A stretch of 64,000 nt of DNA from the NCBI RefSeq assembly GCF_041886205.1, contig NZ_CP169029.1. The stretch is one strand, 5' to 3'. The translations under genes and the position numbers were made by a program. This DNA comes from Escherichia coli. Its GTDB lineage: Bacteria > Pseudomonadota > Gammaproteobacteria > Enterobacterales > Enterobacteriaceae. Positions 45,310 to 47,971 of this stretch are shown piece by piece; the first letter of the stretch is position 1; the number at the start of each line of letters is the position of its first letter. The notes under the pieces were generated by a model that ran no database searches, was not told where the DNA came from, and worked only from the letters and a program-made list of their open reading frames with translations.

Positions 45310-45798
45310 TTACCAGTCGAAAGTGGGGAACCCCGGCAGACATTCTGCGCTGGCGTCCAGATGAATGAGACTGACGCCATAACGCCGGGTGAGTGTGACA
45401 ACCAGACGACGGAACGTTTTTGACAGGCCCAGGCGCTTAAGCCGCAGAACCGGGTATGACCACGCATCGGTACGTAACAGATAGCCGCTACCTGTGAAAT
45501 GAATCCATTCTGATTCACCAACGTCACTGGTCTGGTGTGACAGCGAGTACAACCAGGCGTTGTCCGTTTCCGTGATATGTGCGGTACTGCAGCGTATGCC
45601 GGCAAGGGTTGCAAATGGCGGAGGTGTGCAGGTTGACTGTTGGTCGGATTCCTCCACCACACGGAGTGAATAACCGTTTTCAGCGACGTTATTAATCAGT
45701 TCAGTGAGATTAACACCATCGACGTCAACGACAATGCGCCCCATGTTCAGTGCCTGCACGTTAACGCTGTCAGCTTCCAGCGTCAGGGCCAGTTTCAT
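45310..45798 (-). CDS. YeeW-like protein
   Basis: 162-aa ORF immediately downstream of and 4-nt overlapping the cbtA homolog. Confidence 0.6.
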
Positions 45799-46172
45799 CG
45801 TTTCGCCTCCTGATACTTACCCAGGGTAATGTTATTTACCGTTCGGTAATTGTCGCGGGTCATCAGGCCAGTCGCCCGGCGAGCCCGGAGGATATCGATG
45901 CTGTTTATTAACTGAGAGCGGGTACAGGCACTGAATTCCGGCTGGTCGGTACGCACCAGCGCGTATTTTTCCACGAGAAAATTCACCGCATCACACAGTG
46001 AAATGCCTGCCTCAATATGCTGCTCAATCACACGTTCATCGGCAAACGGTGTGTCATTCAGTGTAAGGCCGTAATGCTGGCCCAGTAGTCGGGAGAGCAG
46101 AGTCTGCCAGATGGTGACGGGAGACGGGCAGCTCGATGCCTCCCGTACGTGTGTATCGGGTAATGTTTTCAT
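45795..46172 (-). CDS. cbtA: CbtA-family toxin (YeeV/YkfI/YpjF family)
   Basis: 125-aa ORF closely matching E. coli CbtA ([41 protein letters not shown]). Confidence 0.88.
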
Positions 46173-46261
46173 ACTGAAGGTTTTCCTGATATGCAGAGAT
46201 GAAAAATGGAAAAGTGGCGTGGTGAAAGCACCAGGCCGGAGCAGAAGGTTATTCCGGTGGT

Positions 46262-46630
46262 TTACTTTTTCGTTTCGGGCGTCGGATAAACAGCCAGATA
46301 AACGTAACCACCGCTACCGAGAGTGTCAGCTTTGCAGGTCAGACCTTTTGCATACAGCGTGACGGTATGCTGATGGCGGGGATTCAGTTCACCGCTGGTG
46401 AGCATGAGTTCCAGTTGTTTCATCAGCAGCGGAAAGGCCTGGTCCAGGTGGTACGCATCTGCATCGCTGAACAGGCCTCTGATACCGGCGCGGTCGGCAA
46501 GGTAATGCAGGCGGTTACCCTCCTGCACCAGACGTGCCCCGAAACAGGGCGTCACGGTGCAGGGCAGCCCCCACCAGAGGCGGTCGTGATTGTCGTCGGG
46601 AAGTATTGTCCCGGGGAGTGTGTCTGACAC
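46262..46630 (-). CDS. cbeA: CbeA-family antitoxin (YeeU/YafW/YfjZ family)
   Basis: 122-aa ORF matching CbeA ([31 protein letters not shown]). Confidence 0.88.
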
Positions 46631-46709
46631 GATAAAATCCTCACAGAAAATCGGTTAAGAATGGTCCGGTGGTGGCGATAATTCTGCTCATCTGAATACC
46701 CTTCCAGAC

Positions 46710-46931
46710 TCAGTTCAGAGTGACGCTCATCAGCCGGACATACGGGCCAAAACTGTCCTTACGACGTTCAGCAAACACGGCCAGCACACCGGGAATATCC
46801 TGCACTTCACGACCGGTATACGCTTCAGTGCTGCCGTGCCAGCGGTATTTGCCGGTACAGAACGGGAAAAGACGGGATGTCGGATGTTGTTGGTGAATAC
46901 GCATGGCTTCACCACGAGTGATAACTTTCAT
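46710..46931 (-). CDS. YeeT-like protein (DUF987)
   Basis: 73-aa ORF at the canonical position upstream of cbeA. Confidence 0.75.
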   Translation of the reverse strand: MKVITRGEAMRIHQQHPTSRLFPFCTGKYRWHGSTEAYTGREVQDIPGVLAVFAERRKDSFGPYVRLMSVTLN

Positions 46932-46993
46932 AATGGGATACCTCTGAAGACAGAAGATAAAAGAGAAAACAGGTGTGATGTGGTTGTGACGGG

Positions 46994-47485
46994 TTAAAGC
47001 AGACCATGTTCGGCAAAGGAGAAAACCTGGTTGCCACCGACTATCAGATGGTCCGGCACCCGGATATCCACCAGGCCCAGTGCCTGTACCAGACGTTCGG
47101 TGATAAGCCGGTCTGCCTTACTGGGTGTGACTTCACCGGACGGGTGATTGTGCGCCAGCACCACGGCAGCGGCATTGTGGTACAGGGCGCGTTTAATCAC
47201 TTCCCGGGGATGGACTTCCGTGCGGTTGATGGTGCCGGTGAAGAGGGTTTCACCGGCAATCAGCTGATTCTGGTTATTCAGATACAGCACCCGGAACTCT
47301 TCACGCTCCAGTCCCGCCATGTTCAGAATCAGCCATTCCCGTGCCGCACGGGTGGAGGTGAAGGCCACACCGGGTTCATGAAGATGGCGGTCCAGGGTTT
47401 TCAGGGCCCGCAGAATGAGACTGCGCTCACCGGGCGTCATCGCTCCGGGCAGAAAGGAAAGCTGTTGCATTGTGCTTCTCTCCAT
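46994..47485 (-). CDS. RadC-like JAB/MPN-domain protein (YeeS/YkfG/YfjY family)
   Basis: 163-aa ORF with JAMM metalloprotease motif (VLAHNHPSGEVTPSKAD). Confidence 0.85.
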   Translation of the reverse strand: MERSTMQQLSFLPGAMTPGERSLILRALKTLDRHLHEPGVAFTSTRAAREWLILNMAGLEREEFRVLYLNNQNQLIAGETLFTGTINRTEVHPREVIKRALYHNAAAVVLAHNHPSGEVTPSKADRLITERLVQALGLVDIRVPDHLIVGGNQVFSFAEHGLL

Positions 47486-47971
47486 TCAGTCGATGATGCG
47501 CATAATGGCGCTGCATTCCGGATGCTGCAGGGCGTAATCCCGCAACCGGTAATAATGGACCGTCATGGCATAACACTCCGTACGACAGGCGTGATGACTG
47601 TACGTCATCAGACAGGCAGCAATGCCGGCGGCTTCCGGGCTCATTTCAGCGCGGTTGCCGTTCATGGCATTGAACAGTACCCATGTTTCGTCATCATCGT
47701 CATCCGGTTCGGGGGCCATAAATGCCCCGCCGTTGTTCAGAGTGTACAGATTCCAGATACCACCGCAGTAGTCTTCGCACAGACGGTCCATCCAGCCGAA
47801 AACACGGGGCTCCAGGGTCACCCACTGTGGAATGAGGCCAAAATGCTGCGGCCAGAAGCTGATGCGCTGTTCATCAGGGACTATGGTGGCAACCAACTGA
47901 GGCTGGTCATTCCCTGATGCAGCGGTTACGGAAACAGAAGATGTGGTGGAATTATGTGAAATGGTTTTCAT
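47486..47971 (-). CDS. Antirestriction protein (KlcA/ArdB-like; YfjX/YafX family)
   Basis: 161-aa ORF at the conserved position upstream of radC-like; family assignment from recalled similarity. Confidence 0.6.
   Translation of the reverse strand: MKTISHNSTTSSVSVTAASGNDQPQLVATIVPDEQRISFWPQHFGLIPQWVTLEPRVFGWMDRLCEDYCGGIWNLYTLNNGGAFMAPEPDDDDDETWVLFNAMNGNRAEMSPEAAGIAACLMTYSHHACRTECYAMTVHYYRLRDYALQHPECSAIMRIID

Follow-up and report, generated by a model that had tools for sequence, protein, structure and literature searches.

The DNA at positions 45795-47971 of the window (the whole 64,000-nucleotide stretch of Escherichia coli contig NZ_CP169029.1 that was analysed) raises the question of whether a block of five small genes, flagged in a first-pass annotation as an apparently intact CbtA/CbeA toxin-antitoxin with YeeT, RadC-like and antirestriction genes, is complete, to which kind of element it belongs, and what it may do for the island that carries it or for the host.

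Gene content and integrity of the block

Five uninterrupted genes were read on the minus strand between 45795 and 47971: ardB, a radC-like JAB gene, yeeT (DUF987), cbeA and cbtA. Position 45795 is the final base of the cbtA stop codon and 47971 the first base of the ardB start codon. The genes are separated by spacers of 15 bp (ardB-radC), 62 bp (radC-yeeT), 79 bp (yeeT-cbeA) and 89 bp (cbeA-cbtA); chance as the origin of this gene order and tight spacing is excluded by a wide margin. All five products gave full-length Pfam matches (CbtA_toxin, CbeA_antitoxin, DUF987, RadC and Antirestrict), and BLASTP against the translated K-12 genes of CP4-44, CP4-57 and CP4-6 yielded gapless end-to-end alignments for the block proteins. 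The first-pass annotation had proposed five full-length, tightly packed frames in the canonical order; the exact coordinates, Pfam and BLASTP agree on this layout, and the full-model Pfam matches and K-12 protein alignments bear out its assignments of CbtA, CbeA, YeeT and the RadC-like protein. Its claim that all members are intact also held, as the alignment with K-12 revealed neither frameshifts nor premature stops. A search with tblastn found no second copy of the block in the window. Among the NCBIfam models, only the RadC-like protein was matched, with none for CbtA, CbeA, YeeT or ArdB.

Compared with the RefSeq annotation of E. coli JML285, the genes for CbtA, CbeA, the RadC-like protein and ArdB show zero non-synonymous differences, and YeeT is one residue away from its counterpart there. 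The ribosome-binding sites in the block are intact. Pairwise dN/dS values were 0.04-0.30 in every computable comparison, for all five genes and in shallow as well as deep pairs (0.08-0.16 for yeeT); judged from these alignments, the block genes show purifying selection at the family level. Overall, CP4-like (P4-integrase-type) E. coli islands share a conserved distal operon, of which the block, on an island at serX, is very probably an intact copy of the standard form, and the module may be functional, as far as the sequence can tell.

The CbtA toxin and the CbeA antitoxin

The gene at 45795-46172 (minus strand) is cbtA (yeeV) and encodes a CbtA-family toxin of 125 aa. Its match to PF06755 (1.8e-61; 205.5 bits with a cut-off of 25) covers model positions 1-112 of 112, and the protein is identical to RefSeq WP_000854748.1 and 90.3% identical to K-12 CbtA over 124/124 aa without gaps (BLASTP). 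A sequence search returned no relatives of CbtA or YeeT with a solved structure. At 8/8 additional sampled loci cbtA was intact, also where the downstream DUF5983 gene is truncated.

The targets of the toxin were considered from two positions in the protein. In K-12 CbtA, the F65S substitution leads to loss of FtsZ binding and R15C to loss of MreB binding, and a protein with both changes is no longer toxic; CbtA, YpjF and YkfI all need F65 to bind FtsZ (PMC5624674). F65 is kept in the window CbtA and is carried by 14/14 aligned alleles. Position 15 of the window protein is a cysteine, so that R15, the MreB determinant of K-12 CbtA, which is not conserved across the family, is absent; Cys15 was found in 13/14 sampled alleles, and arginine only in K-12 CbtA. 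Because R15C abolishes MreB binding in the K-12 protein, targeting of MreB by the window CbtA is less certain. The earlier statement that CbtA inhibits MreB/FtsZ polymerisation thus stands as established for the K-12 allele, with its MreB half carrying over to this copy less securely. Cys15 would bear on the certainty of MreB targeting, and not on membership of the CbtA family. YpjF and YkfI also have Cys15, YpjF nonetheless interacts with MreB, and C15R left the MreB two-hybrid result unchanged for both proteins (PMC5624674).

Since K-12 CbtA no longer binds MreB once it carries R15C, and residues 6-15 as a whole differ here, one could suppose that the Cys15 form, as the common natural form, has a target spectrum different from that of the K-12 allele, for instance FtsZ only, producing filaments and not lemon-shaped cells; we consider this quite unlikely. 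If true, the dual inhibition of FtsZ and MreB by which the literature defines CbtA would be peculiar to the K-12 allele, an atypical one. K-12 CbtA, the allele that has been studied, has an unusual N-terminus right at the MreB-binding determinant, and natural alleles like the window copy are therefore the right material for work on the normal targets of the family.

The gene directly upstream of cbtA on the same strand, at 46262-46630 (minus strand), is cbeA (yeeU), which codes for a CbeA-family antitoxin of 122 aa; the two genes, with their 89-bp spacer, have the arrangement of an antitoxin-toxin pair. It starts with GTG, as in K-12, and has a GAGGA ribosome-binding site. The product matches PF06154 over its full length (7.9e-53; 177.7 bits with a cut-off of 27), is 94.3% identical to K-12 CbeA in a gapless alignment of 122/122 aa (BLASTP), matches the structure of YeeU (PDB 2H28, E 4.3e-78) as well as those of YfjZ (2EA9/2JN7), and is identical to RefSeq WP_040089920.1. 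Folding of the cbeA-cbtA spacer was marginal (z -2.13; 5/200 shuffles), with a hairpin that takes in the cbtA start codon; the yeeT-cbeA (z +0.28) and radC-yeeT (z -0.79) spacers folded no better than shuffles.

A type IV antitoxin acts on FtsZ/MreB and not by binding the toxin, a mode known only for the K-12 proteins; K-12 CbeA is described as working at these cytoskeleton targets and not by sequestration of the toxin. The CbeA family is classed as type IV, and YafW neutralises YkfI as YfjZ neutralises YpjF (PMC5371832).

YeeT and the RadC-like protein

The yeeT gene (46710-46931, minus strand) encodes a DUF987 protein of 73 aa that matches PF06174 (2.8e-38) and is 97.3% identical to K-12 YeeT over 73/73 residues without gaps (BLASTP).

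The radC-like JAB/JAMM gene of the yeeS/ykfG/yfjY (lfgB) family lies at 46994-47470 (minus strand) and encodes 158 aa, or 163 aa if translation begins at another ATG, at 47485. The protein matches PF04002 (8.4e-45; 152 bits with a cut-off of 22.1) and TIGR00608 (149 bits with a cut-off of 133.85), the latter at model positions 96-218 only. The equivalog model for canonical RadC, NF000642, has a cut-off of 180 bits, which the protein misses with 160.3 bits; the match spans only positions 88-211 of the 212 in that model. The protein is 99.3% identical to K-12 YeeS (148/148), 81% to YkfG (158/158) and 71% to LfgB (BLASTP), and it matches PDB 2QLC (6e-26). The window protein is a short JAB-only RadC-like protein, the same as YeeS, YkfG and LfgB, from which the N-terminal domain of canonical RadC is absent. 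The JAMM motif noted in the first reading was confirmed: HNHPSGEVTPSKAD (H-x-H-x7-S-x2-D, also written HNHPSG-x5-S-x2-D) was read from the translation with all ligands in place and is invariant in six aligned sequences. LfgB is considered a protease, and yfjX-yfjY-ypjJ-yfjZ-ypjF has been handled as a single operon (PMC10846083).

The antirestriction gene

The first gene of the block, ardB (47486-47971, minus strand), has a strong ribosome-binding site (AAGGAG) ahead of it and encodes an ArdB/KlcA-family antirestriction protein of 161 aa, which is identical to RefSeq WP_000849582.1 and matches PF03230 (2.4e-37; 127.4 bits with a cut-off of 25). The comparison with PDB 2WJ9, the ArdB of pathogenicity island II of CFT073 and a member of the same Pfam family, gave E 1.4e-100 with one difference across residues 25-161 (the last 137), whereas the N-terminal ~24 residues diverge and the lengths differ by four residues. 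KlcA (2KMG) is a distant relative (E 8.4e-21). The protein had initially been called KlcA-like; the antirestriction family was correct, but judged by these alignments ArdB is the better name, because the protein hardly differs from CFT073 ArdB whereas KlcA is distant. It is 69% identical to K-12 YfjX and 67% to YafX (BLASTP). In vivo, CFT073 ArdB relieved restriction by type IA-ID systems 54- to 1174-fold, affecting restriction and not modification, and relief of type I restriction in vivo was also shown for YafX and YfjX (PMC2836571).

On the plus strand, an antisense open reading frame of 303 aa (47006-47917) overlaps the radC-like gene and ardB. It was rejected as coding, as its frame is not kept in the CP4-57/CP4-6 paralogues (where the longest frames are 155-174 aa and lie elsewhere), and it is a by-product of codon usage.

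Comparison with the CP4 islands of K-12

The recurrence of the module in CP4-type prophages, stated in the first reading, was verified: the same five-gene order is present in CP4-57 and CP4-6 and, in part, in CP4-44. K-12 CP4-44 has yeeS, yeeT, cbeA and cbtA in the same order and orientation as the window, with a cbeA-cbtA spacer of 88 bp against 89 bp. It lacks the stretch between yeeR and yeeS, so that ardB, DUF932, DUF905 and IrmA, all present in the window, are missing; its yeeS is short of 10 N-terminal codons and its yeeW is a 64-aa remnant, and both are full in the window. In the toxin, residues 6-11 and 15 differ (Cys15 in the window, Arg15 in CP4-44). The window copy is more complete than that of CP4-44 and, since the latter is deleted and truncated, is the cleaner reference for the ancestral architecture.

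The CP4-57 genes lfgABCDE (yfjX/lfgA-yfjY/lfgB-ypjJ-yfjZ-ypjF) and the CP4-6 genes yafX-ykfG-ykfH-yafW-ykfI have an architecture identical to that of the window, including the antirestriction gene, and the toxin end of CP4-6 abuts the 3' end of the thrW tRNA gene as the window block does with serX. The proteins of these two islands are paralogues and not orthologues of the window proteins (60-81% identity); with 105-113 aa their toxins and antitoxins are shorter, and 20 bp separate the antitoxin gene from the toxin gene, against 89 bp in the window.

Island setting

The tRNA-Ser(GGA) gene serX (43917-44004, plus strand; ARAGORN, Rfam tRNA and the AH62 layout), beside ghrA, is the insertion site of the island, which starts straight after it, as expected for CP4-type islands, with their insertion at the 3' end of tRNA or tmRNA genes, and mirroring thrW/CP4-6. 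The last island gene before serX encodes a DUF4942 protein of 280 aa (44154-44996, minus strand; PF13708 at 1.7e-70), and is followed, away from serX, by a DUF957 gene of 65 aa (45093-45290, minus strand), the homologues of which are annotated as DUF957 in JML285 (91.4% DNA identity) and AH62 (87.9%). Adjoining the block is a DUF5983 gene (45310-45798, minus strand; PF25638 and PF19419), a full-length yeeW homologue of 162 aa, the start of which overlaps the cbtA stop codon (ATGA) and the product of which is 72% identical to the 64-aa K-12 YeeW remnant (BLASTP). An obligatory second antitoxin role for DUF5983 was rejected: 4/8 sampled loci, and K-12, have a truncated gene or a pseudogene beside an intact cbtA.

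Immediately upstream of ardB lies a DUF932 gene of the yafZ family (48026-48844, minus strand; 272 aa; PF06067 at 7.4e-52), with a product 75% identical to K-12 YafZ (BLASTP). The run from DUF932 to DUF957 is bracketed by terminator-like hairpins, at 48922-48893 upstream of the DUF932 gene and at 45053-45027 after the DUF957 gene. A simple scan of the minus strand at 43900-49900 gave no sigma-70 promoter-like sites, with overall fewer sites than in shuffles. At the gathering threshold, the sole Rfam hits in 43000-57000 were the tRNA and, upstream of Ag43, the IsrC/IS102 RNA; 45795-47971 gave nothing.

The order of GTPase, Ag43, yeeR, DUF932, ardB, radC, yeeT and the toxin-antitoxin block is that of CP4-type islands. 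The neighbouring yeeR-like gene has a nonsense codon, and hence not every gene of the island is maintained. No integrase was seen in 44005-64000, the island continuing past the window end at 64000, or in the 47.7-kb AH62 locus. The island carries type I restriction-modification genes in the window, and DarTG is present in the AH62 island.

Distribution and exchange between islands

Of 5426 complete E. coli genomes, 4950 (~91%) contain DNA matching the block, at a median of three places each; in 4385 genomes a single place spans at least 80% of the block query, and in 131 one spans at least 80% of window positions 42000-64000. The block is already known and is an ordinary textbook copy: it is real but ordinary, because it is present on genomic islands in about nine out of ten E. 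coli genomes. Every block protein has characterised close homologues, and the locus has little significance beyond correct annotation.

The SRL-PAI-like island of AH62 occupies the same insertion site, serX, and shares with the window the genes for DUF4942, DUF957, DUF5983, the toxin-antitoxin pair, YeeT, RadC and ArdB as well as those for DUF932, DUF905, IrmA, the yeeR-like protein, Ag43, the GTPase, HsdM and HsdS. The toxin and antitoxin alleles of AH62 differ from those of the window (87% and 91% DNA identity), and an extra gene of 684 bp lies between yeeT and the antitoxin gene, which is absent from the window. The toxin-antitoxin segment of the window matches not AH62 but the JML285 island, which lies at another locus: across 45.3-52.3 kb the identity to it is 99.5-100%, and the flanks of this segment resemble the AH62 serX island. 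The near-identity to an island elsewhere, together with the AH62-like flanks, indicates recent exchange. A segment exchanged between islands at different chromosomal sites shows paralogous islands homogenising their toxin-antitoxin cargo.

Possible roles of the module

By analogy with close homologues, the genes would be co-transcribed. ArdB would block type I restriction, and not modification, when DNA of the island comes into a new host. CbtA would bind FtsZ via a surface including F65, and probably MreB too, so that division and elongation stop, and CbeA, made from the gene just upstream, would neutralise it. It is proposed that the pair, in which CbeA neutralises CbtA, therefore penalises loss of the island, as general knowledge of toxin-antitoxin systems suggests. 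The JAB protein, with all JAMM ligands intact, is a putative small metalloprotease; LfgB, which is 71% identical to it, is reported to cleave the antitoxin MqsA.

Alternatively, the module could be mainly an establishment kit for entry by horizontal transfer and not a device for maintenance or addiction, which we regard as possible but less than likely. ArdB and CbeA-family proteins would be present early in the recipient, possibly delivered in protein form by a conjugative type IV secretion system, where ArdB blunts restriction and CbeA pre-empts the toxin. In a Cre-fusion screen a type IV secretion system of the F type translocated 32 chromosomal proteins including CbeA, YfjZ, YagB and YfjX, although at low frequencies of 1e-7 to 1e-5 per donor, and deletion of yfjX was without phenotype in an SOS assay (PMC11288057). 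CbeA, YfjZ and YagB belong to the CbeA family, and YfjX to the ArdB family. That ArdB hits restriction and not modification (PMC2836571), and that the DUF932, ArdB and RadC-like genes travel together, would fit such a role; however, the stretch of the island that lies in the window showed no transfer genes, and retention of the toxin is left unexplained.

It is unlikely that the toxin-antitoxin pair acts chiefly in host physiology (responding to stress, forming biofilms or defending against phage through growth arrest) and not in island retention. [quoted passage not shown] The type I restriction-modification and DarTG genes mentioned above are of the defence type. However, the phenotypes are modest and come from K-12 paralogues, the PADLOC defence models gave no match to CbtA, CbeA, the RadC-like protein, DUF932, DUF4942 or any other block protein, and phage-defence evidence for the CbtA/CbeA family was not found in the literature consulted.

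Finally, the copy is very unlikely to be a silent passenger, intact only through recent recombination from another island and without current function: the identity to the JML285 island between AH62-like flanks, the nonsense mutation in the adjacent yeeR-like gene and the outcome of the promoter scan would agree with this, but all five genes have dN/dS values well under 1, the ribosome-binding sites are intact, and cbtA is retained at every additional sampled locus, even beside a truncated DUF5983 gene.

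Gene content and identity of the five-gene block

Five uninterrupted minus-strand frames were found in the ORF list for window positions 43000–50500, at exactly the coordinates that the first-pass annotation had implied (block 45795–47971): cbtA (45795–46172, 125 aa), cbeA (46262–46630, 122 aa, with the same GTG start as in K-12), yeeT (46710–46931, 73 aa), a radC-like gene (46994–47485, 163 aa counted from the first ATG; 46994–47470, 158 aa, in the RefSeq form, with a GGAGAG ribosome-binding site) and the antirestriction gene ardB (47486–47971, 161 aa). Ribosome-binding sites were found for the block genes. 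All five proteins cover essentially the whole of their Pfam models, far over the curated cut-offs: CbtA_toxin (1.8e-61), CbeA_antitoxin (7.9e-53), DUF987 for YeeT (2.8e-38), RadC (8.4e-45) and Antirestrict for ArdB (2.4e-37). ORF list and Pfam thus confirm the five full-length genes and their order as first described, and the JAMM motif noticed in the RadC-like protein is present as HNHPSGEVTPSKAD (H-x-H-x7-S-x2-D), invariant across six homologues. An antisense ORF of 303 aa (47006–47917) was rejected, as the paralogues do not conserve it. The window contains the block only once, no Rfam family matches inside the block, and PADLOC gave no defence model for its proteins.

For comparison with E. 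coli K-12, the loci of three cryptic prophages (CP4-44, CP4-57 and CP4-6) were retrieved, their annotated genes translated and the products aligned with the window proteins by BLASTP. Identity to the K-12 counterparts was 90.3% for CbtA (124/124 K-12 residues aligned, gapless), 94.3% for CbeA (122/122), 97.3% for YeeT (73/73), and 99.3% and 81% for the RadC-like protein against YeeS (148/148) and YkfG (158/158); ArdB is 69% identical to YfjX and 67% to YafX. With 0 frameshifts and 0 premature stops in these alignments, the claim that all members are intact was borne out by ORFs, Pfam coverage and K-12 comparison alike. By its sequence, the block belongs to the CbtA/CbeA-YeeS-YeeT-ArdB module found on CP4-like islands, a kind already known, and the original interpretation of the module is supported. 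Every testable sequence feature that defines the module is present. Two further features are absent but do not bear on membership, namely the K-12-specific R15 of CbtA and a full-length RadC equivalog, which the K-12 homologues lack as well. No integrase was seen within 44005–64000; it would be past the window end. The sole difference from CP4-44 is the greater completeness of the window block.

The antirestriction protein had been called KlcA-like, a name that holds at the family level; the precise name is ArdB. It differs at one residue over positions 25–161 from ArdB of strain CFT073 (PDB 2WJ9), which relieves type IA, IB, IC and ID restriction 54- to 1174-fold in vivo, with modification barely affected and no effect in vitro (PMC2836571). 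The RadC-like protein consists of the JAB domain only (TIGR00608, positions 96–218) and scores too low for the full-length RadC equivalog. It is 71% identical to its CP4-57 homologue YfjY (LfgB), reported as a protease degrading the antitoxin MqsA in a study that handled the five CP4-57 genes as a single operon (PMC10846083). For YeeT, no relative with a solved structure was found.

Toxin targets and antitoxin

In K-12 CbtA, FtsZ binding is lost with F65S and MreB binding with R15C, and a protein with both changes is no longer toxic; the FtsZ determinant is also used by YpjF and YkfI, which carry Cys15 and whose MreB interaction was left unaltered by C15R (Heller et al., PMC5624674). The window CbtA keeps F65 and has Cys15 (codon 46128–46130), whereas K-12 CbtA has Arg15 and also differs at residues 6–11. 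Cys15 and the N-terminal DTHVRE occur in 13 of 14 aligned CbtA alleles, so that the laboratory allele of K-12 is the atypical outlier. Because F65 is conserved, Cys15 occupies the MreB position and C15R had no effect in YpjF and YkfI, targeting of FtsZ by analogy is well supported, and targeting of MreB by the common Cys15 form is plausible but uncertain. CbeA matches the solved structures of YeeU and YfjZ. YafW and YfjZ each neutralise their toxin (PMC5371832).

Selection and decay

Nei-Gojobori dN/dS was calculated per gene against CP4-44, CP4-57 and CP4-6 of K-12 and two further E. coli strains, JML285 and AH62. All computable comparisons of the five genes fell between 0.04 and 0.30 (against K-12: cbtA 0.29, cbeA 0.27, yeeT 0.08, radC 0.04; ardB against AH62: 0.10). 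These low ratios indicate purifying selection on the family and do not prove expression of the window copy, whose function we infer from its intact genes.

A full-length DUF5983 gene (45310–45798, minus, 162 aa) is co-oriented with cbtA, its ATG overlapping the cbtA stop as ATGA; a published survey describes DUF5983 as a recurring partner downstream of CbtA. That it would be an obligatory antitoxin was rejected, since the gene is truncated or a pseudogene in 4/8 further loci sampled over the identity range, all eight with intact cbtA, and is truncated in K-12 too (yeeW, a 64-aa remnant).

The island is not wholly intact, though the block is, because an amber codon (TGG to TAG, 51521–51523, minus; the Trp of LLNNAWYERN) divides the yeeR-like gene (49787–52309, ~838 aa) into ORFs of 262 and 573 aa. 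The site is TGG in JML285, AH62 and K-12.

Surrounding genes and transcription

Besides DUF5983, genes for DUF932 (48026–48844), DUF957 (45093–45290) and DUF4942 (44154–44996) extend the block into a longer run of the same orientation. Terminator-like hairpins on the minus strand (49231–49203, 48922–48893 and 45053–45027) make the DUF932-to-DUF957 run look like one transcription unit, which we only infer, since a simple promoter scan gave no minus-strand site. Evidence for structure in the intergenic spacers is not convincing. The strongest case is the 89-bp cbeA-cbtA spacer (46160–46275, minus), which is only 20 bp long in the paralogues of CP4-57 and CP4-6. Its folding is somewhat better than that of shuffled sequences (z −2.13, 5/200), and the cbtA start codon falls within its predicted hairpin, which may modulate toxin translation or be due to chance. 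Farther upstream lie DUF905, IrmA, the yeeR-like gene, Ag43 and a YeeP-type GTPase, followed by a short variable cassette and by hsdM and hsdS, genes for type I restriction-modification. IsrC/IS102 RNA (55289–55525, minus; Rfam 71.2 bits, gathering score 46) lies directly upstream of the Ag43 gene, matching isrC upstream of flu in CP4-44.

Island structure and frequency

The island starts directly after tRNA-Ser(GGA) (43917–44004) at the serX locus, with ghrA, ycdX, ycdY and csg genes as neighbours; over 20000–43900 the backbone matches E. coli chromosomes at 100.0% identity. Its toxin-proximal end faces the tRNA, as in CP4-6 at thrW of K-12, and AH62 has the same annotated serX island backbone. 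A place covering at least 80% of 42000–64000 occurs in 131 genomes. The best match to the block (99.9%) is in JML285, in an island at another chromosomal site, beside gsp/yghD genes; its RefSeq proteins there agree fully with the window's in four cases, and YeeT differs by V3I. Gene by gene, 45.3–52.3 kb (DUF5983 to the yeeR-like gene) is 99.5–100% identical to the JML285 island, whereas the flanks (44154–45290 and 52424–63921; DUF4942, Ag43, hsdM, hsdS) are nearer to the AH62 serX island (90–98%). The toxin and antitoxin of AH62 itself are only 87% and 91% identical to the window at the DNA level. The JML285-like core and AH62-like flanks suggest a mosaic island, in which the toxin-antitoxin segment would have been exchanged between paralogous islands by recombination. 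In the AH62 island a hypothetical gene of 684 bp (L005 16636–17319) separates yeeT from the antitoxin gene; it is missing in the window, JML285 and K-12 copies.

Megablast with the 2177-bp block matched 4950 of 5426 complete E. coli genomes (median 3 places, maximum 15 per genome), 4385 of them with a place of at least 80% query coverage. According to a published survey, a strain can have as many as 8 copies of CbtA (PMC10790755).

Transfer and restriction genes

The module might instead be mainly an entry aid in horizontal transfer and not an addiction device, a view fed by a Cre-fusion screen in which an F-type conjugation system translocated CbeA, YfjZ, YagB and YfjX along with other proteins (PMC11288057). 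Besides ardB (47486–47971), whose product by analogy would inhibit type I restriction and spare modification, the island has type I restriction-modification genes of its own (hsdM and hsdS, 60134–63921); ArdB might help that system to become established. The AH62 restriction-modification operon has darT and darG embedded, followed by hsdR; the window stops short of that point.

The low-GC variable cassette (56555–60133) runs from the GTPase gene to hsdM. It encodes an HTH_73 protein, a 172-aa ORF that matches HEPN_AbiU2 below threshold (23.5 bits, cut-off 26.8) and a 459-aa ORF with no match in Pfam, NCBIfam or PADLOC. AH62 shares just 28% of the cassette, and several O157:H7 and bovine strains carry it at 100% identity, annotated as hypothetical.
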